Positions 2,810-59,942 of a stretch of 59,942 nucleotides of DNA are shown in pieces. The stretch comes from a virus. Its lineage: Duplodnaviria > Heunggongvirae > Uroviricota > Caudoviricetes. The DNA lies in IMG/VR virus record IMGVR_UViG_3300045988_167837; one strand, 5' to 3'. How positions within the stretch are numbered: the first letter of the stretch is position 1; the number at the start of each line of letters is the position of its first letter. Both the position numbers and the translations under genes were made by a program. The notes under the pieces are model-generated. The model ran no database searches, was not told where the DNA came from, and saw only the letters and a list, made by a program, of their open reading frames with translations.

Positions 2810-4495
2810 TCATTTAACGCGTTTGAAAACGTATACGCTGACTGTGATCCCTGTGTCTTCAAACTCGTTGGTAAACGACTTCCCTCTGGCATAAACGTAA
2901 TTATCCATCGTCATCCAGTCCAGTATTGGCGCAGTGCCCGGCAATACTGCTACAAGACGCCCGCCGACTTTCAGATGCCCCAGCGCAGCCAGCGTGTGCT
3001 CTCTATGACGACCAAGCGAGTACGGCGGGTTCATAACGATTTTGTCGAACTGATAACCTGCGTTGTCCTCAGACCACTTTATGAAGTCGCAGCAAATCGT
3101 GTTCGTATACCCTTTTCCACGCAGGATATCAGCGAAGAGAGGTGCGATTTCTATGCAGGTAACATCTTCCAGATCGGCGTCAATATAGGCCAGAAGATCC
3201 CCACGTCCGGCTTGAGGCTCCAACAGCTTCTCACCAGGCTTCAATTCAGTGGCTCTTGCAACGTACTCAGCAATCAAGCGTGGGGTAGGGTAGAACTGGT
3301 GTGATTTTGTATCCGGTATTAAACCGGTAGCCACAATCGTATTTAGCGTATGGCCGATGTCATACGGGAACTGCCAGTGCTTTTTCTCCTGCACGCCGCC
3401 AATGAAGCTCAGTGTGCGCTCAAGCTCTTCCACCTGCGACTTCTGGAGAGCTGAATCAGAGAAGTACCATACACCTTTGTCTTTGCTCAATCGCCCGTCA
3501 CGAAGCGCAGTGCGAACCGGCACGGAGATCGTCTTCTGGATTAAACCGAACTGCTTTGGTGCCCGTGTTTTTGGCGCAGTTCGGCATGGCGCGGGGATTG
3601 CAGCAGGCATACTGTAAGCCAGCACCTCATTCAACTTCCAGGCCACGTCAGGATGTATTTCAAAGTGAACGTTGCCGTTCTTGAACATCTTCACGCGCAT
3701 CAGATTTCCATCGACGTTCATCCAGTCACCGGTCTGGCAGTCGTTTGCCCGATACGCAGCTGATAGCACCTCAGCAGTGCGGTTGATGGTAATAAATTCT
3801 TTGTGCGCGAAGAAATGAAGCAAGACACGCAGATCGTCGATGTAGTCCTCTTTGCGATAGTTCACGCTAACGCTGTCCCGCCAGAAATCAGAAATGCAGT
3901 CAGCGATTATCAGCCGCTCGCTGAAACCATTTGTCTTATTTGTCTTGTGCACAGGACTCAGCGCCTTAAACAAGCCATACACGCGCTCAGAGAGATATTT
4001 GTGCCTGTCATTCAGCAAATTAAGCATCGTGGGTATGACCGTTTCTGCTTTGAACTCCGGTACACCAACGAACTCTTTAACCTTCATCTGGTAGCCGGTT
4101 CTGTCAGTTTTGATGACTTCCTGTTTGCCCTCTATAAACTGCTCGCGCCACTCATCTCGACGGGAAGCTGGCATGATCAGCAAAACGTTAGTCATGTCCG
4201 TGACCTTCCTCCAGTACTCGGCCCAAATATTCTGTTTCACCCATTCCAGATCGACTTTATCCAACCAACCTCGATTTAAACGCGAGCGATCTTCATCTGG
4301 TCGATGGTTTAGTTTCAGCAGGCGATTAATCATGTTGTGGCGTTCGTCGCCATAAACGAAGTTGTGAACCTGATACATGAAGGCGATCTCTTTCTCGCAC
4401 TCGGCCACAATTTCGTGGATAACGTTCATTTCCTGACGATAATCGATAGCAGTGTTTGAGCTGGCATCGTCGATGATGGAAAGGGCTGTATTCAT
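2810..4495 (-). CDS. putative DNA methyltransferase with large N-terminal domain of unknown function (561 aa)
   Basis: C-terminal region has SAM-MTase-like motifs (LEPQAGRGDLL then IVMNPPY motif IV, typical of N6-adenine/N4-cytosine MTases); N-terminal about 380 aa without recognisable motifs. Confidence 0.6.
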   Translation of the reverse strand: MNTALSIIDDASSNTAIDYRQEMNVIHEIVAECEKEIAFMYQVHNFVYGDERHNMINRLLKLNHRPDEDRSRLNRGWLDKVDLEWVKQNIWAEYWRKVTDMTNVLLIMPASRRDEWREQFIEGKQEVIKTDRTGYQMKVKEFVGVPEFKAETVIPTMLNLLNDRHKYLSERVYGLFKALSPVHKTNKTNGFSERLIIADCISDFWRDSVSVNYRKEDYIDDLRVLLHFFAHKEFITINRTAEVLSAAYRANDCQTGDWMNVDGNLMRVKMFKNGNVHFEIHPDVAWKLNEVLAYSMPAAIPAPCRTAPKTRAPKQFGLIQKTISVPVRTALRDGRLSKDKGVWYFSDSALQKSQVEELERTLSFIGGVQEKKHWQFPYDIGHTLNTIVATGLIPDTKSHQFYPTPRLIAEYVARATELKPGEKLLEPQAGRGDLLAYIDADLEDVTCIEIAPLFADILRGKGYTNTICCDFIKWSEDNAGYQFDKIVMNPPYSLGRHREHTLAALGHLKVGGRLVAVLPGTAPILDWMTMDNYVYARGKSFTNEFEDTGITVSVYVFKRVK

Positions 4496-5500: not shown

Positions 5501-5926
5501 TTAGAGATAAGCATCCAGTGACAACTGAAGCGCCTGGGCGATCTTTTTCAGTGCCTGCTCTTCTTGTTCACCAATGCCGTCCTGATCGGCAATATCAAGG
5601 CACAGACACAGAACATCGACCGCCTCTGGAGTACCCGCAATATCAGACAGCTCACGAATAGCCTGTGCATTAGCAGAACGAGGGGACGCTTCGTAACGAG
5701 CACGGATATTGGCGCTCATTTGGGCAATTTCACCAGCAAACGGAGAAAACGCAGGCAGAGCTGCAATTGTCTTCTCAAGAATGGCAATTTCTTTTGCGTC
5801 ACATGTGCCGTCGGCATAGGAGATCATGTACGCGCCCCACACGGTGGCCTCAACCGCATCACGGTTCTCCATTTTTTTGACTTCGATAACAGCTTTACGA
5901 GTTTTCTTTTTGAAGAAACCTAACAT
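5501..5926 (-). CDS. hypothetical protein, possibly TerB-like (141 aa)
   Basis: ORF with acidic helical C-terminal region; weak resemblance to TerB/DjlA-N-type domains from memory only. Confidence 0.4.
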   Translation of the reverse strand: MLGFFKKKTRKAVIEVKKMENRDAVEATVWGAYMISYADGTCDAKEIAILEKTIAALPAFSPFAGEIAQMSANIRARYEASPRSANAQAIRELSDIAGTPEAVDVLCLCLDIADQDGIGEQEEQALKKIAQALQLSLDAYL

Positions 5927-7535: not shown

Positions 7536-8033
7536 ATTACTTCCCAGAACAGGTTTTTATAAACCTGAACTGAACGAACGAAGTGAGTGAAGTTCACCTC
7601 GAACGAAGTGAGAGGTTGTCTTTTCAGGTAATACTCTCCCAGGGAGGTGAGTATAAAAATCTCTCACCAACCTGGTCGTTTCATAACCTGAAAAGTTATG
7701 GTCTAAGTCTACTGCCAGCTTAGACTTGGGAAGTTATGGATGACAGCACCCCAGAACCGAGATCTTCCCACACTTTATGAAGGGGAGTACTGGATTCAAC
7801 CTCTCGAAACACCCCAGACTCGACAATCATAAAGTGACCCTTGTCTCTGCTCACTTTGGTTCCCCCTTCCCCGACACCTAAACGGCACCAGTTCTACGCT
7901 GGTAGTGAGCTTTTTTAAACCTGACGCCAGTGACGCTTACCCCCACCCATCAGGTCGAGTCTCCAGTCTACGACTGGAAACTATCAGATCTTAGCACTTA
8001 CAATTCACTTTATGAATAGTTTGTACTTATCTA
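7536..8033. other. about 500-bp ORF-free region with internal direct and inverted repeats (candidate structured RNA or cis-acting site)
   Basis: No ORF of 60 aa or more; repeated GAACGAAGTGAG, AAGTTATGG and several short stem-loops. Confidence 0.3.
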
Positions 8034-54315: not shown

Positions 54316-54346
54316 AAAAAAGGGGCCGAAGCCCCTTTGGATTTTG
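54316..54346 (+). terminator. rho-independent terminator after HEPN-like gene
   Basis: AAAAAGGGGC-CGAA-GCCCCTTT hairpin followed by TGGATTTTG. Confidence 0.6.
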
Positions 54347-54492
54347 CGCTTAAAAAAGTGTTGCTAGGATGTTAGCAAGCTATGGTTAAGAACGTCTGCC
54401 GTAATTGTCTATCACAGCGTTGAGCGGTCTGGTTTATGTTAGCGGAGTCTTAATCGAGTTGATTAAAAGGCCAAACCGCTCAACGCTGTGTC

Positions 54493-54579
54493 TGGCGGAG
54501 AGTAATGGAATCGAACCATCATCGCTTGCGCAATGGGACGGTTTTCAAGACCGCTTGAGCACCATGCTCCCTACTCTCC
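54493..54579 (-). tRNA. tRNA-Ser (anticodon TGA), class II with long variable arm
   Basis: rc folds as acceptor GGAGAGT/ACTCTCC, anticodon stem GCGGT/ACCGT with loop CTTGAAA, 14-nt variable arm, T-loop TTCGATT, encoded CCA. Confidence 0.6.
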
Positions 54580-54679
54580 AGCTATTGTGATGGTCGGTGC
54601 TGAACTCCGACACAGGGTTGTAGCAAGCCCCGCAAAGCGCGCACTACTGTAGTTGCGGCACATCAGCCTGTGCATTCAT

Positions 54680-54758
54680 CACAACGGTAAGATCACTACC
54701 TTTCGACCAGTCATTGTGCACATGAACGACGATTAACCGTAATGATCTTATCGTTGTG
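54680..54758. ncRNA. long hairpin element A (15-bp stem CACAACGGTAAGATC / GATCTTATCGTTGTG, about 49-nt interior) within tRNA cluster
   Basis: Perfect 15-bp inverted repeat with one G-T wobble position. Confidence 0.35.
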
Positions 54759-54809
54759 TTGTGAAGCCAGATGCTTATCTTCTGGTTGCTTCAAAGAGCT
54801 GCACTTCCT

Positions 54810-54898
54810 CACAACGGTAAGAGCACTGGTCTGACTCTATCGATTTACGGCCTTGTGGGTCAGTATCGCCGATTCGCCCAATGCTCTTACCTGTTGTG
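54810..54898. ncRNA. long hairpin element B (16/17-bp stem CACAACGGTAAGAGCA / TGCTCTTACCTGTTGTG) abutting tRNA-Thr
   Basis: Stem sequence shares CACAACGGTAAGA with element A. Confidence 0.35.
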
Positions 54899-54899
54899 T

Positions 54900-54975
54900 T
54901 GGTGCCGGTTAACGGACTTGAACCGCTGGCCATTCGCTTACAAAGCGACTGCTCTACCAACTGAGCTAAACCGGC
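54900..54975 (-). tRNA. tRNA-Thr (anticodon TGT)
   Basis: rc: acceptor GCCGGTT/AACCGGC, D-arm GCTC-AGTTGGTA-GAGC, anticodon loop TTTGTAA, T-loop TTCAAGT, encoded CCA; 76 nt. Confidence 0.65.
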
Positions 54976-54979
54976 AATT

Positions 54980-55066
54980 TGGTGGGGAGTGATGGAGTCG
55001 AACCACCCGAGTCGCCATGACAGTAGATTTACAGTCTACACCGCTACCTCTACGGACTAACTCCCC
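54980..55066 (-). tRNA. tRNA-Tyr (anticodon GTA), class II with long variable arm
   Basis: rc: acceptor GGGGAGT/ACTCCCC, anticodon stem GTAGA/TCTAC with loop CTGTAAA, long variable arm, T-loop TTCGACT, encoded CCA; 87 nt. Confidence 0.7.
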
Positions 55067-55071
55067 TAAAT

Positions 55072-55146
55072 TGGCGATGGTGGGTGGATTCGAACCACCG
55101 ACCAGTTGGTTAACAGCCAACTGCTCTACCGCTGAGCTACACCATC
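55072..55146 (-). tRNA. tRNA-Asn (anticodon GTT)
   Basis: rc: acceptor GATGGTG/CACCATC, D-arm GCTC-AGCGGTA-GAGC, anticodon stem GTTGG/CCAAC with loop CTGTTAA, T-arm GGTGG-TTCGAAT-CCACC, encoded CCA; 75 nt. Confidence 0.75.
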
Positions 55147-55327
55147 AATTCAGCACTGCCAGTATTTATTACTCAACAGTGCCAATCGCGACGGTTTAGT
55201 TTCTGCCAGGAAACGCACCGCTACTTGCACTTTTCGTTAGTGCCAGACGCTTTCGACTTCGCTCAATAGTAGAAGGCAAAATCTTTAAGTAGATGATGTT
55301 TCTGAGGACAGCACCTACTTTGTAATT

Positions 55328-55365
55328 GGGGAGCCCGCAGAATTCGGAAAAAATCGTACGCTAAG
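55328..55365. repeat. 38-bp terminal inverted repeat of Tn21-family (Tn3 superfamily) transposon, tnpA-proximal end
   Basis: GGGGAGCCCGCAGAATTCGGAAAAAATCGTACGCTAAG, matching the GGGG...ACGCTAAG pattern of Tn21/Tn501-group IRs; tnpA stop codon lies inside it; GC content rises sharply from here. Confidence 0.8.
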
Positions 55366-58327
55366 GTTTTCCGGGCATCCGTAAGGGCCGAAACTTCCCG
55401 TCTTCCAGTCTGCGGCTCTGCCGCCAGACGTAATCGCCGGTTAGGTTGATGTGCTCCCAGCCCAGCGGCGACAGGAATTGCAGCAGCTCGCCGTCCACCG
55501 GCTTGCCGGCCTCGACCAACCCCTGGGTGGCGCGTTCCAGGTACACCGTGTTCCACAGCACGATAGCCGCCGTCACCAGGTTGAGGCCGCTGGCCCGGTA
55601 GCGCTGCTGCTCGAAGCTCCGATCCCTGATTTCCCCAAGGCGGTTGAAGAACACCGCCCTGGCCAGCGAGTTGCGCGCCTCACCTTTGTTCAGGCCGGCA
55701 TGCACGCGGCGGCGCAGTTCAACACTTTGCAGCCAGTCCAGGATGAACAGCGTGCGCTCGATCCGGCCCAGCTCGCGCAGGGCCACGGCCAGTCCGTTCT
55801 GGCGCGGGTAGCTGCCGAGCTTGCGCAGCATCAGCGAGGCGGTGACGGTGCCCTGCTTGATCGAGCTGGCCAGGCGCAGGATGTCGTCCCAGTGGGCACG
55901 CACGTGCTTGATGTTCAGGGTGCCGCCGATCAGCGGGCGCAACGTCGGGTAGGCTTGCACGCCCTGCGGCACGTACAGCTTGGTTTCGCCGAGGTCGCGG
56001 ATGCGCGGCGCGAAGCGGAAGCCTAGCAGGTGCATCAGGGCAAAGACGTGATCGGTGAAGCCGGCCGTGTCGGTGTAGTGCTCCTCGATCCGCAGGTCGG
56101 ACTCGTGGTACAGCAGGCCGTCGAGCACATAGGTGGAATCGCGGACGCCGACATTCACCACGCGGGTGCTGAACGGCGCGTACTGGTCGGAGATATGGGT
56201 ATAGAACAGCCGTCCCGGCTCGCTACCGTACTTCGGGTTGACGTGCCCGGTGCTCTCGCCCCGGCCACCCGCGCGGAAGCGCTGGCCATCGGAGGATGAG
56301 GTCGTGCCGTCGCCCCAGTGGGCGGCAAAGGCGTGGCGATACTGGTGGTTGACCAGCTCGGCCAAGGCCGCCGAATAGGTTTCGTCGCGGATGTGCCAGG
56401 CTTGCAGCCAGGACAGCTTGGCGTAGGTCAGGCCGGGGCTCGACTCGGCCATCTTGGTCAGCCCGAGGTTGATCGCATCACCGAGGATTGCGGACAGCAG
56501 CAACGTCCTGTCTTTGGCCTCGGCCCCGTCCTTCAAGTGGGTGAAGTGGCGGCTGAAGCCCGTCCAGTCGTCCACGTCCATCAGCAGTTCGGTGATCTTG
56601 ATGCGCGGCAGTAACTGGCTGGTTTGGTCGATCAGCGCCTGCGCCCGATCCGGCACCGCCGCATCCAGCGGGGTGATTTTCAGCCCTGACTCGGTGAGGA
56701 TGGCATCGGGCAGCTCGTTGTCCTTGGCCAGGCGGGTGACGGTGGCCAACTGCTCGTCCAGCAGCTGCAAACGCTCTTCCAGGTACTGGTCGCTGTTCGG
56801 GTTGATCGCCAGGGGCAGGGCCTGCTCGCGCTTGAGTGCGGCGAACTTCTCGGCCGGCAGCAGGTAGTCGTCGAAGTCGCGGAACTGCCGCGAGCCCTTG
56901 ACCCAGATGTCGCCGGAGCGCAGGGCGTTCTTCAGCTCGGACAGGGCGCAGATTTCGTAGAATTTCCGGTCGAGGCCTTCCGGGGTGATCACCAGCGGCT
57001 TCCAGCGCGGCTTGATGAAGGCCGTGGGTGCATCGGCCGGCACCTTGCGCAGGTTGTCGGCGTTCATCTCACGCAGGGTCTGCACGGCTGCCAGCACGCC
57101 TTGCGCGGCCGGCGCGGCGCGCAGTTCCAGCACCTCCAGCAAGGCCGGCGTGTAACGGCGCAGGGTGGCGAAGTTCTCGCCGACCAGGTGCAGGTGGTCG
57201 AAGCCTTCCGGCCGGGCCAGCAGCTCGGCCTCGCTGACGCTCTCGGTGAACTCGTCCCAGGGAATCACCGCCTCGATGGCGGCATAGGGGTCGCTGCCGC
57301 TTTCCTTCGCTTCCAGCAGCGCCTGGCCGATCCTGGAGTACAGGCGCACCTTGTCGTTGATCGCCTTGCCCTGCTTCTGGAACTGCTGCTGATGCTTGTG
57401 CTTCGCGCCGCTGAACAGCTTGACCAGGATGCGGTCATGCAGATCGACCAGCTCATCGATCACGGTCGCGGTGCTCTCCAGCACCACGGCGGCCAGGGTC
57501 GCGTAGCGGCGCTGCGGCTCGAACTTACCGAGGTCTTTGGGCGTCATCTGCCCACCCTCGCGGGCCAGCTTGAGCAGGCGGTTCTGGTGGATGTGCCGGC
57601 CCAGGCCTTCGGGCAAGTCCACCAACTGAAATGTCTTCAGCCGCTCGATGTGTTCCAGCATGTGCCGAGAGTTGGGTTTCAGCGGTGCCTGGCGCAGCCA
57701 GGTCAACCAGGTGATGCTGCTGCCGGCCTTGAGCTTCAACAGCTCGTCCAGCTTGGCCCGATGCGAGTCCGTGAGTGGTTCGACCAGGGCGCGGTAGACC
57801 CGCCGATTGGCTCGCGCAATGGCTTCCGAGCAGGCCCGGTCAATCACGCTCAGCGCCGGCAGGATGCGTCGTTTCTGCCGTAGGCTCTCCAGGGCCTGAC
57901 CGGCCAGCAGCAAGCCTTTGTCGGTCTGCTGGGCCAGCTCGGTTAGCTCGCGCACCAGGGCGCGGAAGTCGGACAGGCCGAACGGGGCCAGTTGCAGGTA
58001 GGTGCGCAGTTCCTGGGCATGCTCGCGACGGGTCACGTCGCGCTCGCCGTACTTTGCCCAGCTCGCCGGCTCGGCCTGGACTTGCTTCGCCACCCACAGG
58101 ATGACCGGCTCGGGCAGCTCGCTGTCGGTTCCCAGCGCGTAACCGGGGTAGCGCAGCAGGCAGAGCTGCACGGCGAAGCCGAGGCGGTTGGCGTCGCCGC
58201 GTCGCTGGCGGATCAGCGACAGGTCGGAGTCGTTGAAGGTGTAGTAGCGGATCAGGTCATCCTGGCTTTCCGGCAGCGCAAGCAGGGTGTCCCGCTCCGT
58301 GGCCGAGAGGATCAAGCGACGCGGCAT
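55361..58327 (-). CDS. tnpA: Tn3-family (Tn21 subgroup) transposase
   Basis: 988-aa ORF with recalled Tn21-group TnpA blocks (MPRR.ILSA.ER..LLALP N-terminus, DDE region [32 protein letters not shown]-terminal [20 protein letters not shown]). Confidence 0.9.
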
Positions 58328-58330
58328 GTG

Positions 58331-58891
58331 TCAGTCGTCCGTGCGGAGGTACTGGTAGAGGGTTTCCCGGCTGATGTTGAACTCGCGGGCAAGCTGCGCC
58401 TTGGGCTCGCCGGCCGTCGCTCGCTGCCGCAGGGTAGCAGCCTGCTCATCGGACAGGGCTTTCTTGCGGCCCCGGTACGCGCCACGCTGCTTGGCCAAGG
58501 CGATGCCCTCACGCTGCCGCTCGCGGATCAGGGCGCGCTCGAACTCAGCGAAGGCCCCCATCACCGACAGCATCAGGTTGGCCATCGGCGAGTCCTCGCC
58601 AGTGAACACCAGGCCCTCCTTCAGGAACTCGATGCGCACGCCGCGCTGAGTCAGCTTCTGTACCAAGCGACGCAGGTCATCGAGGTTGCGGGCCAGCCGA
58701 TCCATGCTGTGCACCACCACTGTATCGCCTTCGCGGACGAAGCTCAGCAGCGCTTCGAGCTGGGGGCGCTGGGTGTCCTTGCCCGATGCCTTGTCGGTGA
58801 ACACCTTGCTCACCTGGGTTTGTTCCAGCTGGCGTTCCGGGTTCTGGTCAAAGCTGCTGACCCGGACGTAGCCGATGCGGTGCCCCTGCAC
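58331..58891 (-). CDS. tnpR: serine recombinase resolvase
   Basis: 186 aa; catalytic Ser region GYVRVSSFDQNPERQ, C-terminal HTH; sequence as I recall it for Tn21 TnpR. Confidence 0.9.
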   Translation of the reverse strand: MQGHRIGYVRVSSFDQNPERQLEQTQVSKVFTDKASGKDTQRPQLEALLSFVREGDTVVVHSMDRLARNLDDLRRLVQKLTQRGVRIEFLKEGLVFTGEDSPMANLMLSVMGAFAEFERALIRERQREGIALAKQRGAYRGRKKALSDEQAATLRQRATAGEPKAQLAREFNISRETLYQYLRTDD

Positions 58892-59066
58892 GATGTCTCC
58901 TTGGTTGAAGGCGGCTTAAGTGCACTTTCTGTTCCGTTGTGCCTCAAAGCCCATTTCTGTCAGGCTGAAATCTATAACCTTCGCGGGCATGTGTCAAAAA
59001 ATGGGAAAGCAGACTCTATTCTGACGAAGCGGCGCGGCCCTGCCTGACATCAAGTTAGGGTATGCC
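58892..59066. other. res (resolution) site region between tnpR and tnpM
   Basis: Position by analogy with Tn21 organisation; subsites not individually delineated. Confidence 0.45.
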
Positions 59067-59417
59067 TCAACCTGACGGCGGCGAATCACAAGCGTCCGGT
59101 TTGACGCTGGTTTCGGTCGCAGTGCTGGCCCGCGCCTGGAAGCGCTGATAGCACTCCAGCCCGCAGAAATGCTCCACGTACTCGGCCCCTTCCGGCGTGA
59201 AGGCGGCATCGAGCGGGATTTCCTTGCAGCACACGCAGCAACTGGTGCTCGGTTCATTGGCGTTCATGGTGGTGTTCCTCCATTGGTTGACGAAGCCGAC
59301 GAAGGCCGCCGCCGGCATCGGCCTGGCGAACAGGAAACCCTGCACCGTGTCGCAACCCGCCTGCCGCAACCACGCAAGGCAGTCGGGTGTTTCCACACCC
59401 TCGGCTACCACCTCCAT
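59067..59417 (-). CDS. tnpM: TnpM (5' remnant of the EAL-domain urf2 gene interrupted by integron insertion)
   Basis: 116-aa reading frame starting [33 protein letters not shown] (EAL C-terminal motif); the 204-aa track ORF 59067..59681 reads through IRi and is chimeric. Confidence 0.7.
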
Positions 59418-59442
59418 TGTCGTTTTCAGAAGACGGCTGCAC
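59418..59442. repeat. IRi, 25-bp inverted repeat at the intI1 end of a class 1 integron
   Basis: TGTCGTTTTCAGAAGACGGCTGCAC, the class 1 integron IRi sequence as I recall it. Confidence 0.8.
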
Positions 59443-59619
59443 TGAACGTCAGAAGCCGACTGCACTATAGCAGCGGAGGGGTTGGATCCATCAGGCAACG
59501 ACGGGCTGCTGCCGGCCATCAGCGGACGCAGGGAGGACTTTCCGCAACCGGCCGTTCGATGCGGCACCGATGGCCTTCGCGCAGGGGTAGTGAATCCGCC
59601 AGGATTGACTTGCGCTGCC

Positions 59620-59942
59620 CTACCTCTCACTAGTGAGGGGCGGCAGCGCATCAAGCGGTGAGCGCACTCCGGCACCGCCAACTTTCAGCACATGCGTGTA
59701 AATCATCGTCGTAGAGACGTCGGAATGGCCGAGCAGATCCTGCACGGTTCGAATGTCGTAACCGCTGCGGAGCAAGGCCGTCGCGAACGAGTGGCGGAGG
59801 GTGTGCGGTGTGGCGGGCTTCGTGATGCCTGCTTGTTCTACGGCACGTTTGAAGGCGCGCTGAAAGGTCTGGTCATACATGTGATGGCGACGCACGACAC
59901 CGCTCCGTGGATCGGTCGAATGCGTGTGCTGCGCAAAAACCC
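59620..59942 (-). CDS. intI1: class 1 integron integrase, 3' portion (gene continues beyond window end)
   Basis: Translation ends ...[61 protein letters not shown], the IntI1 C-terminus; frame open to window edge. Confidence 0.9.

Follow-up and report, generated by a model that had tools for sequence, protein, structure and literature searches.

A family of long hairpins, unannotated in the records examined, accompanies a cluster of four phage-type tRNA genes in the 60-kb window (the whole stretch of viral DNA that was analysed, 59,942 nt). Its members share a conserved 19-bp stem beneath a very variable top, and sequence comparison leads us to favour, with moderate confidence, the view that these hairpins are RNase III processing sites of a phage tRNA and small-RNA operon. 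The tRNA cluster itself is routine. Rfam, searched at curated and at permissive thresholds, holds no family for the hairpins and returned only miRNA and snoRNA matches at noise level.

The tRNA genes and the parts of the array

ARAGORN finds exactly four tRNA genes in the window, all on the minus strand: tRNA-Asn (GUU) at 55072–55146, tRNA-Tyr (GUA), with a long variable arm, at 54980–55066, tRNA-Thr (UGU) at 54900–54975 and tRNA-Ser (UGA) at 54493–54579. A sequence-only reading had placed the same four genes in exactly this interval (54493–55146) and on this strand, and had seen an encoded CCA in each, which is present in all four. Each has a cloverleaf, an anticodon and a 3' CCA, for tRNA-Ser by ARAGORN alone. 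The Rfam tRNA model (RF00005) scores tRNA-Asn, tRNA-Tyr and tRNA-Thr above threshold (75.5, 41.6 and 69.0 bits, respectively); tRNA-Ser has an atypical D-arm and scores best on the tRNA-Sec model of Rfam, where its 44.6 bits fall slightly short of the 47-bit cut-off. In the record of phage D6, the amino acid of the corresponding tRNA-Ser was left uncalled by tRNAscan-SE.

The same reading had described the tRNAs as element-encoded and unlike those of the host, and this is borne out. Identity to the K-12 isoacceptor genes is 65% for tRNA-Asn (asnT), 68% for tRNA-Tyr (tyrU), 74% for tRNA-Thr (thrU) and 64% for tRNA-Ser (serT), and the genes lie in a mobile-element locus that is 97–100% identical to E. 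coli plasmids of about 110 kb and to the phages CMS-2020a and Cyrano, and that matches P1, P7 and D6 over part of its length. None of the four tRNAs is new: they are annotated in RefSeq on the ~110-kb E. coli plasmids and have homologues in P1, P7 and D6. tRNA-Tyr is missing in three relatives (Cyrano, L083 and L120). A codon-usage comparison, which had been proposed as a check, gave a concordant result, with ACA making up 25% of the Thr codons and UCA 20% of the Ser codons of the element, about twice the host's usage according to standard K-12 codon tables.

Two tandem hairpins had also been claimed between tRNA-Thr and tRNA-Ser, one of them abutting tRNA-Thr, and both are real. HP1 (54810–54898, minus strand) starts 1 nt past the CCA of tRNA-Thr and consists of a 20-bp stem with a bulged A under a variable top of 47 nt; HP2 (54680–54758, minus strand) has a stem of about 20 bp with one A.C mismatch and an apical loop GUGCAC. 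The stems exist as described, but their proposed length of 15–17 bp was too short, the actual length being 19–21 bp with the bulged A or the A.C mismatch. Both hairpins are of type A and score 66.5 bits (E = 2e-16) and 57.5 bits (E = 6e-14), respectively, on the covariance model R1 introduced below; none of 200 shuffled sequences folds equally well (z = -6.5 for HP1 and -4.7 for HP2). On the plus strand they have CACAACGGTAAGA in common (repeat family D2), and the exact 3' arm CTTACCGTTGTG occurs within the window at HP1 and HP2 only.

Further parts of the array had gone unlisted in the earlier reading. HP3 (54413–54490, minus strand), which belongs to the CACAGCGUUGAG subtype of type A, begins 2 nt past the CCA of tRNA-Ser and forms a 20-bp stem (inverted repeat I2, 95% complementary; R1 29.2 bits, E = 5e-6; z = -9.8); it is kept in Cyrano and CMS-2020a. 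A second kind of structure, the type B element (about 54585–54684, minus strand), emerged from RNAalifold with seven homologues from P1, D6, HK629, CMS-2020a and K-12. It has an 8-bp closing stem (UUGUGAUG/CAUCACAA), internal hairpins and a variable middle; the closing stem overlaps the final bases of HP2 and the element ends 5 nt before tRNA-Ser. Folded as a single sequence, this element is not significant (z = -0.75). Finally, a small spacer hairpin (UGAAGC-AA-CCAGA...UCUGG-GCUUCA; 54762–54793, minus strand) can be read from the sequence between HP1 and HP2; the spacer around it is near-identical in P1, Sasha and many viral contigs, and recurs after hairpins in P1, in Sasha and at the loci L006, L026 and L065.

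The tRNA/hairpin array ends at an intrinsic terminator (54319–54338, minus strand), identified by a terminator scan as an 8-bp G+C-rich stem followed by a T run, and the intact relative L001 has the same terminator site. At the other side, identity to the intact plasmids ends at 55327, where the terminal inverted repeat of a Tn3-family (Tn21-like) transposon follows (55328–55365), with tnpA, a resolvase and a Urf2-like gene adjoining. The array is thereby separated from its upstream part, whose hairpins are seen in L001 only; the annotation of L001, and of no other record, also has a tyrosine recombinase 2.5 kb from the array. A scan for sigma-70 promoters upstream of tRNA-Asn, in the window and in the intact relative, found none that was convincing. 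Because the transposon is inserted 188 bp upstream of tRNA-Asn, transcription from the native promoter is in doubt, and the array may not be expressed from it in the window.

A conserved stem and its spread

The members of the hairpin family share a 19-bp stem (CACAAC-A-GGUAAGAGCAUUG / CAGUGCUCUUAYCGUUGUG), whereas the tops differ widely, with 38 different interiors among 53 distinct hairpins. A loose pattern that allowed four substitutions per arm brought in mainly spurious matches; the searches used here are stricter patterns and the covariance model R1, which was built from 29 relatives in tRNA-sense orientation with the K-12 sequence left out. In the window, R1 detects HP1, HP2 and HP3 only; the other strand scores 37, 41 and 17 bits at the three hairpins, respectively. 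Among the 29 diverse copies, 97.1% of the stem cells are paired, as against 33–62% when the 3' partners are slid by one to three columns, and 10 of the 19 stem pairs display compensatory change on both sides; not one of 500 shuffles reached the observed values. The wobble cells of the stem comprise 40 G.U and 3 A.C. Since G.U exceeds A.C to this degree, the tRNA-sense strand is the strand that folds; and because R1 was itself built in tRNA-sense orientation, it is the G.U count that provides independent evidence of the strand. Hairpins and tRNAs that lie within 600 nt of each other in related loci are co-oriented in 96 of 96 pairs, and in 22 loci a hairpin abuts the 3' end of tRNA-Thr.

The family is present in P1, lambdoid prophages, Sashavirus and large lytic phages, and near-identical arms occur in the unrelated P1, SSU5-like plasmids, lambdoid phages, Sashavirus and rV5-like phages. 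The 3' arm alone matches at least 120 viral contigs, and one hairpin variant was found in 340 of 5,426 complete E. coli genomes; a scan of the genome collection with the strict two-arm pattern matched 3 species, too few to define a host range. Among conserved RNA structures of enterobacterial phages and prophages, the hairpins rank with the more widespread. The C1-controlled ban operon of P1 contains the same block, and CRISPRi knock-down of trnT, plp and upl in this phage was scored non-essential (PMC10695390). The annotated ORFs plp and upl cover the three P1 hairpins on the opposite strand, and they are probably spurious.

Close relatives differ by entire modules. Between tRNA-Thr and tRNA-Ser, the window contains HP1, the spacer hairpin, HP2 and the type B element; of these modules, CMS-2020a has only HP2 and a variant type B element, and Cyrano has none, its two tRNAs being only 8 nt apart. 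The junctions of the modules coincide with short CACAA repeats, and the hairpin of Sasha has carried along a remnant of the 3' end of tRNA-Thr. In view of these patterns, the modules probably move by recombination, for which either the conserved arms or the flanking CACAA repeats would be used.

Proposed processing by RNase III and its alternatives

The link to RNase III stems from the dicBF operon of the Qin prophage in K-12, in which an RNase III processing site upstream of DicF was reportedly described by Faubladier et al. in 1990. R1 detects one family member in this prophage, located between ydfC and dicF (L130, 4172–4259; 30 bits, E = 4e-7; 11 bits on the other strand). An rnc mutant loses a 190-nt DicF species, whose 5' end lies between +813 and +814 of the dicBp transcript, and also loses the ydfABC transcripts (preprint 10.1101/2023.04.14.536235). 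A distance of 190 nt upstream from the 3' end of DicF leads to L130 4246–4251, and position +814 from the predicted transcription start corresponds to about 4250–4252; both estimates, which depend on a gel-derived RNA length and on that predicted start, fall within the 3' arm of the K-12 hairpin (4239–4258). We infer that the published RNase III cut that generates the 190-nt DicF precursor probably lies in this arm; the loss of ydfABC in the rnc mutant fits a protective 3' hairpin that remains after cleavage. Downstream of dicF, K-12 also has a type B element, and the RNase III-dependent 3' end of the 72-nt DicF (PMC5069750) as well as an RNase III site determined by RNA-seq (1649470; PMC5371410 supplement) map to its 5' base. 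The list of RNase III targets in that supplement contains the dicF-dicB site only, and not the upstream one. A stem of about 20 bp suits RNase III because the enzyme accommodates about 22 bp (PMC6212723), and HP1, HP2 and HP3 each provide roughly 20 bp of nearly uninterrupted double-stranded RNA.

On this basis, the window would represent the downstream portion of a phage-plasmid's array of non-coding RNAs, about 1.6 kb long and read as a single minus-strand transcript in the order tRNA-Asn, tRNA-Tyr, tRNA-Thr, HP1, spacer hairpin, HP2, type B element, tRNA-Ser, HP3 and terminator. The tRNAs would supplement host decoding, chiefly of the ACA (Thr) and UCA (Ser) codons that are frequent in the element. 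The long hairpins, with their conserved base of about 20 bp, would act as entry sites for the host RNase III; cutting of the stems would free the tRNAs from one another and from the spacers, leave tRNA-Thr and tRNA-Ser with short 3' trailers to be trimmed by exonucleases, and release the variable tops as small hairpin RNAs. That the window hairpins are cut like their K-12 homologue, and what this would entail for tRNA maturation, we infer by analogy. If the 3' arm alone were cut, as at phage T7 sites, the hairpin would stay on the 3' end of tRNA-Thr and another nuclease would be needed.

The sequence-only reading had also suggested that the hairpins are co-transcribed and processed with the tRNAs as small stable RNAs. 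Co-transcription and processing gain indirect support from comparative features: a shared strand, one terminator, the strict co-orientation noted above, the position of the P1 block in the ban operon, a wobble pattern that fits the tRNA-sense strand, and a K-12 homologue that coincides with a mapped RNase III site, with the proviso that the upstream region of the window is interrupted by the transposon. As to the nature of the hairpins, the evidence favours a processing signal at least as much as a stable product. The 8-nt gap in Cyrano speaks against a need for them: because tRNA-Thr and tRNA-Ser mature there across this short distance, tRNA processing in itself would not require hairpins. 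Because RNase III is only weakly specific for sequence, cutting by this enzyme alone leaves the strong conservation of the stem sequence across unrelated phages unexplained; such conservation could reflect recent horizontal spread or a sequence-specific binding partner.

The conserved interior of HP2 suggests that the tops are more than inert spacer, which bears on a rather unlikely alternative, namely that the hairpins are precursors of stable small RNAs, the base being a scaffold that protects or releases the RNA and the variable top its active part (a base-pairing regulator, sponge, decoy, dimerising kissing-loop RNA or ribozyme). This is compatible with excision by RNase III and differs in where the function is located. 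The HP2 top (AUCGUCGU...GUGCAC...UCGAAAG) is common to the window plasmid, a 146-kb Shigella phage and lambdoid prophages, and the lambdoid copies hold it within a different basal stem, with compensatory changes in the inner helix. Its apical hexamer is either GUGCAC or GCGCGC, both self-complementary, and non-palindromic variants, which the search pattern allowed, were never found, although this observation comes from three independent lineages only. A 209-nt family member matches a hammerhead type I core (24.7 bits, E = 5e-4), but at another locus and under the Rfam threshold of 34 bits. Many tops contain T-arm-like mini-hairpins, and small RNAs from tRNA spacers and prophages (DicF, STnc100, Pas RNAs) are an established class; on the other hand, most tops are very variable, that of HP1 is confined to close relatives, the hairpins match no Rfam family, and the P1 region is dispensable for plaque formation. 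Somewhat more doubtful still is a broader proposal, drawn from the same comparisons, in which the hairpins would be widespread phage 'cargo' RNAs: the RNase III-cut base of about 20 bp would serve as a universal excision cassette, and the tops, swapped via the conserved arms, would have functions of their own as small RNAs, for example as kissing-loop RNAs, hammerhead ribozymes, tRNA-like decoys or small-RNA sponges. If true, this would constitute a bacterial counterpart to viral tRNA-linked microRNA precursors.

A different proposition places the hairpins among selfish palindromic DNA elements such as MITEs or REPs, or among recombination 'linkers', which would spread from one phage genome to another as DNA and whose RNA structure would be a by-product. 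It would accommodate the presence or absence of entire modules among the near-identical Cyrano, CMS-2020a and window, the CACAA repeats at the junctions, the near-identical arms across unrelated phages and the tRNA-Thr remnant that accompanies the Sasha hairpin, yet we consider it improbable. Not a single hairpin is opposed to its tRNA, and the G.U excess together with the compensatory changes that keep the helix argues for selection on one folded strand and not on duplex DNA ends. Neither a target-site duplication nor an associated transposase was seen, the interiors do not derive from one master element, and the family member of K-12 falls at an RNase III site that is functional. With a single orientation, such diverse interiors and only the CACAA repeat at the junctions, the family does not correspond to a mobile MITE/REP palindrome. 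A YrlA-like Y RNA or tRNA mimic that recruits Ro60/Rsr or a tRNA-modifying or -repair enzyme is very improbable. The layout, in which the 5' and 3' ends pair into a long stem, is superficially similar, and T-arm-like GGUUCGAAUCC hairpins are found in some tops (P1 HP1, L008, L043, L048), but the three hairpins of the window lack a clear T-arm, and the Rfam YrlA model, at E up to 10, matched no hairpin and gave weak matches on the tRNAs themselves. The signature GNCGAAN0-1G found near the 5' end of YrlA (PMC4201824) is not in the conserved 5' arm, and no Ro60/TROVE gene is annotated within 6 kb on either side in the identical plasmid. These comparisons largely refute a YrlA or Y RNA identity.

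Other identities were considered and rejected. Integron attC core sites read RYYYAAC ... GTTRRRY; the arms CACAAC ... GTTGTG depart from this consensus, and no integrase gene adjoins the array. A retron would need a reverse transcriptase, which is missing. A stalk that encloses a tRNA was sought by matching 5' arms with 3' arms over distances of up to 500 nt, which yielded adjacent hairpins only, plus one degenerate tRNA between two hairpins (L048), and no stem around an intact tRNA. For the type B element, STnc100/PasD was dismissed, as RF02076 has no match in 54350–55300 at E up to 10 and the element is not followed by a U tract. The Pas small RNAs are defined by a terminator that has such a tract, a feature likewise missing here.

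Significance and comparison with known systems

With RNase III processing as the preferred reading, the family would tie the 1990 observation on DicF processing to the arrays of tRNAs and small RNAs in P1-like, SSU5-like, lambdoid and large lytic phages, and it offers a simple model in which phages cut long non-coding transcripts by means of a host enzyme. The covariance model could help to clean up phage annotation and, should the variable tops turn out to be functional, phage small RNAs would have a new source in this family.

The closest parallel is the site upstream of dicF in K-12. It has a homologous hairpin, detected on the sense strand only, with the same stem register and compensatory differences (AAGCGCA/UGCGCUU), and it too lies in a polycistronic phage transcript, adjoins a small RNA and is accompanied by a downstream type B element. 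In contrast to the window, the K-12 hairpin flanks a regulatory small RNA and not tRNAs, and the literature consulted treats it as a lone cleavage site and not as a member of a family. The tRNA clusters of P1, P7 and D6 (trnA-trnT, in the ban operon of P1) share homologous tRNA-Asn and tRNA-Thr genes and the same hairpins and spacers after trnT, and D6 has the tRNA-Ser as well; P1 differs in lacking tRNA-Tyr and tRNA-Ser and in having three hairpins with other tops, and the element of the window is an unrelated plasmid of about 110 kb.

More distant systems resemble the array in layout. The RNase III sites of phage T7 and the stalks of rRNA precursors are likewise sequence-related hairpins or stems cut by RNase III between the functional units of a long transcript. 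At the T7 sites (R0.3, R1.1 and others), bulges or internal loops close to the cut direct cleavage of a single strand, which leaves a protective 3' hairpin. Neither system is related in sequence to the window hairpins, whose tops are far more variable; moreover, the T7 sites separate mRNAs and not tRNAs, and the rRNA stalks enclose their product, whereas no hairpin of the window encloses an intact tRNA. Species 1 and 2 of phage T4 are small structured RNAs within a phage tRNA cluster, a likeness of genomic context only. They mature from the precursor that also yields the tRNAs, by tRNA-type processing (RNase P), and they are not known to depend on RNase III or to form a multi-copy family with conserved stems.

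The type B element has its own counterpart in STnc100/PasD (Rfam RF02076; Zhu, Shabalina and Storz, preprint 2026), with which it shares a start with GGUGAAUGC and an end with a CACC closing strand; those are Hfq-binding small RNAs that carry a terminator with a U tract, unlike the type B element of the window. The P1 copy of the element scores 33 bits on the STnc100 model, which has a 47-bit cut-off. Outside bacteria, murine gammaherpesvirus 68 differs in its eukaryotic processing (tRNase Z, Dicer), its unrelated sequence and its microRNA products, but it displays the same layout as the array described here: a viral tRNA-like gene with one or two hairpins immediately behind it, all of which host enzymes release from one transcript.

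The tRNA genes and their setting

The four minus-strand tRNAs that the sequence-only reading had proposed at 54493-55146 are precisely those returned by ARAGORN on the whole 59,942-base window, with identical coordinates: tRNA-Ser (tga; 54493-54579), tRNA-Thr (tgt; 54900-54975), tRNA-Tyr (gta; 54980-55066) and tRNA-Asn (gtt; 55072-55146). All four genes encode CCA, as had been claimed, and their description as non-host-like is correct given that identity to the K-12 isoacceptors is 64-74% (serT 64%, thrU 74%, tyrU 68%, asnT 65%). Scored with the Rfam tRNA model at its curated threshold, Asn, Thr and Tyr pass; tRNA-Ser does not reach the general tRNA threshold and scores highest with the tRNA-Sec model (44.6 bits, below its cut-off of 47). 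The structure of tRNA-Ser(UGA) is unusual, with a long D-stem and a 4-nt loop, and tRNAscan-SE left the amino acid of the homologous gene uncalled in the D6 record. Genes about 80-90% identical to it are spread over many unrelated phages, among them rV5-like coliphages and phages of Klebsiella and Streptomyces.

In the element's 41 long ORFs (14.6 thousand codons, 45.7% G+C), 25% of Thr codons are ACA and 20% of Ser codons are UCA; host usage in standard K-12 codon tables is about half as high. For tRNA-Thr(UGU) and tRNA-Ser(UGA) the proposed codon comparison agrees with the usual supplementation argument; Asn and Tyr are not singled out.

The locus is 97-100% identical to E. coli plasmids of about 110 kb (79 full-length matches), and the phage records CMS-2020a and Cyrano match it as well. 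Its neighbouring genes, which include a primase, a DNA ligase, a glutaredoxin and a CobT-like gene, suggest a phage-plasmid, presumably one resembling the SSU5/pHCM2-like group. The tRNA cluster is already known: RefSeq annotates the four tRNAs on the plasmids, and the trnA-trnT region of P1, P7 and D6 shares about 85% identity with parts of the locus.

Identity to the intact plasmids ends at 55327, 188 bp upstream of tRNA-Asn, where the terminal inverted repeat of a Tn3-family, Tn21-like transposon is inserted (55328-59942, with tnpA at 55361-58327 on the minus strand, a resolvase gene at 58331-58891 and an Urf2-like DUF3330+EAL gene at 59067-59681). Intact relatives, such as plasmid NZ_CP022167.1 (L001, 5404-6181), have about 780 more upstream non-coding nucleotides with at least two further long hairpins, at 5631-5727 (GUAACAGAAUGGGCGG.../...CCGCCCAUCCUGUUAC) and at 5792-5917 (a family member, 39.5 bits), and a full array of about 1.6 kb. 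The insertion thus splits the array, so that the copy in the window is truncated and may be separated from its native promoter; a promoter scan found no convincing sigma-70 promoter upstream of tRNA-Asn in either the window or L001.

A widespread hairpin family folded on the tRNA-sense strand

Two tandem hairpins had been noticed between tRNA-Thr and tRNA-Ser, one abutting tRNA-Thr. Both exist and fold far more stably than shuffled sequence: HP1 (54810-54898, z = -6.5), which begins one base past the Thr CCA, and HP2 (54680-54758, z = -4.7), with a small spacer hairpin (54762-54793) between them. A branched type B element (about 54585-54684) lies between HP2 and tRNA-Ser, and a third, previously overlooked 20-bp hairpin, HP3 (54413-54490, z = -9.8), begins two bases past the Ser CCA. 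All lie on the minus strand, as does the strong intrinsic terminator at 54319-54338 that a terminator scan places at the end of the array. The covariance model R1, built from 29 diverse copies without K-12 sequence, scores HP1, HP2 and HP3 at 66.5, 57.5 and 29.2 bits and finds no further member in the window.

The 53 distinct copies share a strongly conserved stem, in which CACAAC-A-GGUAAGAGCAUUG pairs with CAGUGCUCUUAYCGUUGUG, around interiors of 25-94 nt with 38 different sequences. Across the stem alignment of 29 diverse copies, standard pairs fill 97.1% of stem cells, a share that drops to 33-62% once the 3' partners are shifted by 1-3 columns; both sides vary in 10 of the 19 stem pairs, and none of 500 shuffles attains the observed values. 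One pair cycles through U.G, C-G and U-A, another between G-C and G.U. Since a G.U on one strand is an A.C on the other, the 40 G.U and three A.C cells show that the tRNA-sense strand is the folded strand under selection. Bulged-A hairpins within 600 nt of a tRNA are co-oriented with it in all 96 pairs, and 22 loci have the hairpin directly against the tRNA-Thr 3' end. The loci are interrelated, so that these counts do not represent independent events, yet it is still informative that no pair deviates. Strand asymmetry of pairing and strict orientation relative to the tRNAs both make it unlikely that the hairpins are purely a selfish element acting at the DNA level.

The same elements lie downstream of trnT in phage P1, and the 146-kb Shigella phage SF1-1 carries HP1 and HP2 homologues directly after tRNA-Thr, as in the window. 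The lambdoid phage HK629 has a copy between an HNH gene and the holin gene; in Salmonella phage Sasha (L004, 1425-1521) one follows a head gene in a structural-gene intergenic region that holds no tRNA. The Sasha hairpin is preceded by GUAACCGGCAC, a leftover of the tRNA-Thr 3' end, which suggests that a tRNA-linked locus supplied the copy. At least 120 viral contigs match the 16-base 3' arm by itself, and 340 of the 5,426 complete E. coli genomes carry one variant, with no annotated feature beneath it. Such near-unaltered recurrence in unrelated phages points to horizontal spread, for which recombination within the conserved arms is the probable route. Exact two-arm matches outside Escherichia were seen in Pantoea eucrina (L135) and in a 9.7-kb metagenome-assembled contig binned as Cellvibrionaceae (L134), which may be a mis-binned enterobacterial phage fragment.

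In Cyrano (L126, 1460-1630), a close relative, tRNA-Thr and tRNA-Ser are only 8 nt apart without hairpins, and CMS-2020a (L127) has just HP2 and a variant type B element; the hairpins are thus dispensable modules, gained and lost at short CACAA repeats. Relatives also differ in tRNA content: tRNA-Tyr is missing from Cyrano, L083 and L120, tRNA-Thr from a Klebsiella phage-plasmid (L128), and the related locus L008 has Arg(UCU) where Asn stands elsewhere. The tRNA genes behave like exchangeable modules, as the hairpins do. A lambdoid array (L048, IMGVR_UViG_3300011836_000027, 1017-1651) begins with a hairpin and a degenerate tRNA whose anticodon region is interrupted by a 68-nt insert (Rfam 39.9 bits, missed by ARAGORN). 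Next come a hairpin of 135 nt bearing a pair of T-arm-like motifs, the start of a type B element and a DicF-like RNA (33 bits vs a cut-off of 48), followed by a further hairpin.

The P1 ORFs plp ("putative lipoprotein") and upl (L002, NC_005856, 2575-3144) lie wholly opposite the conserved hairpins, plp overlapping the trnT 3' end; their counterparts on the plus strand of the window are spurious ORFs at 54405-54590 and 54771-54992, and related records carry "hypothetical protein" calls across the same DNA. Both plp and upl are probably annotation artefacts.

The dicF region of K-12 as a probable link to RNase III

Because a DicF-like RNA occurs in the same array in P1 and L048, the K-12 Qin prophage was searched with R1. 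The model finds one member, between ydfC and dicF (L130 4172-4259, genome 1649171-1649258; 30 bits, E = 4e-7, vs 11 bits on the opposite strand), whose stem departs from the consensus by compensatory changes. The dicBF transcript is cut by RNase III, as a 190-nt DicF species is lost in an rnc mutant (10.1101/2023.04.14.536235), and the 5' end of this species has been mapped to the +813/+814 junction of the dicBp transcript (Faubladier et al. 1990, cited in 10.1101/2023.04.14.536235). Measured 190 nt upstream of the DicF 3' end, this 5' end falls at L130 4246-4251; taken as +814 of a transcript whose start is predicted from the -10 box at 3426-3431, it falls at about 4250-4252. We infer that the K-12 cut falls in the 3' arm of the hairpin (4239-4258), near the conserved bulge; the dicF literature examined does not describe a hairpin there. 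Transcripts of ydfABC vanish in the rnc mutant (10.1101/2023.04.14.536235), which would fit a protective 3' hairpin remaining after cleavage.

K-12 also has a type B element downstream of dicF. At its 5' base lie the RNase III-dependent 3' end of a 72-nt DicF (PMC5069750, PMC9438474) and position 1649470, identified as an RNase III site by RNA-seq (PMC5371410 supplement). An 8-bp closing stem that shows some compensatory change is common to seven type B elements, that of the window among them; the single-sequence fold of the window's element is non-significant (z = -0.75), and support for the structure is modest.

Processing and the variable tops

Most likely, the array would be transcribed as a single RNA that host RNase III enters at the ~20-bp stems, its cuts parting tRNAs from spacers; short trailers would be left for exonuclease trimming, and RNase P would make the tRNA 5' ends. 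In P1 the block lies inside the C1-repressed ban operon, so that expression is expected on induction; CRISPRi across trnT, plp and upl scored as non-essential (PMC10695390). Readings of the elements as YrlA/Y RNA, STnc100/Pas, attC, retrons or MITEs each fail on defining features.

RNase III alone leaves the strong conservation of the stem sequence unexplained. A live alternative, compatible with RNase III excision, is that the tops are excised small RNAs with their own role, since several look functional. SF1-1 shares the conserved HP2 top, and lambdoid prophages carry it within a different basal stem. The apical loop of this top (window 54711-54720; other copies in related loci L005 1545-1555, L057 and L144) is a self-complementary hexamer in both of its forms, GUGCAC (SSU5-like plasmids and an rV5-like phage) and GCGCGC (lambdoid prophages), which suggests loop-loop dimerisation; the search pattern permitted non-palindromic variants and found none, among three independent lineages only. 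One 209-nt member (L070, IMGVR_UViG_2923302340_000002, 7779-7987, minus strand) holds within its stem a hammerhead type I match with an intact catalytic core (CUGACGAG...CGAAAC...GUC), below the Rfam threshold (24.7 bits vs a 34-bit cut-off, E = 5e-4), and many tops contain T-arm-like hairpins. Functional cargo in the tops, if true, would be of high interest; otherwise interest is moderate. The conserved family has apparently not been described as such before, and its members would belong to a known kind, the RNase III-type processing hairpins of phage polycistronic RNAs.
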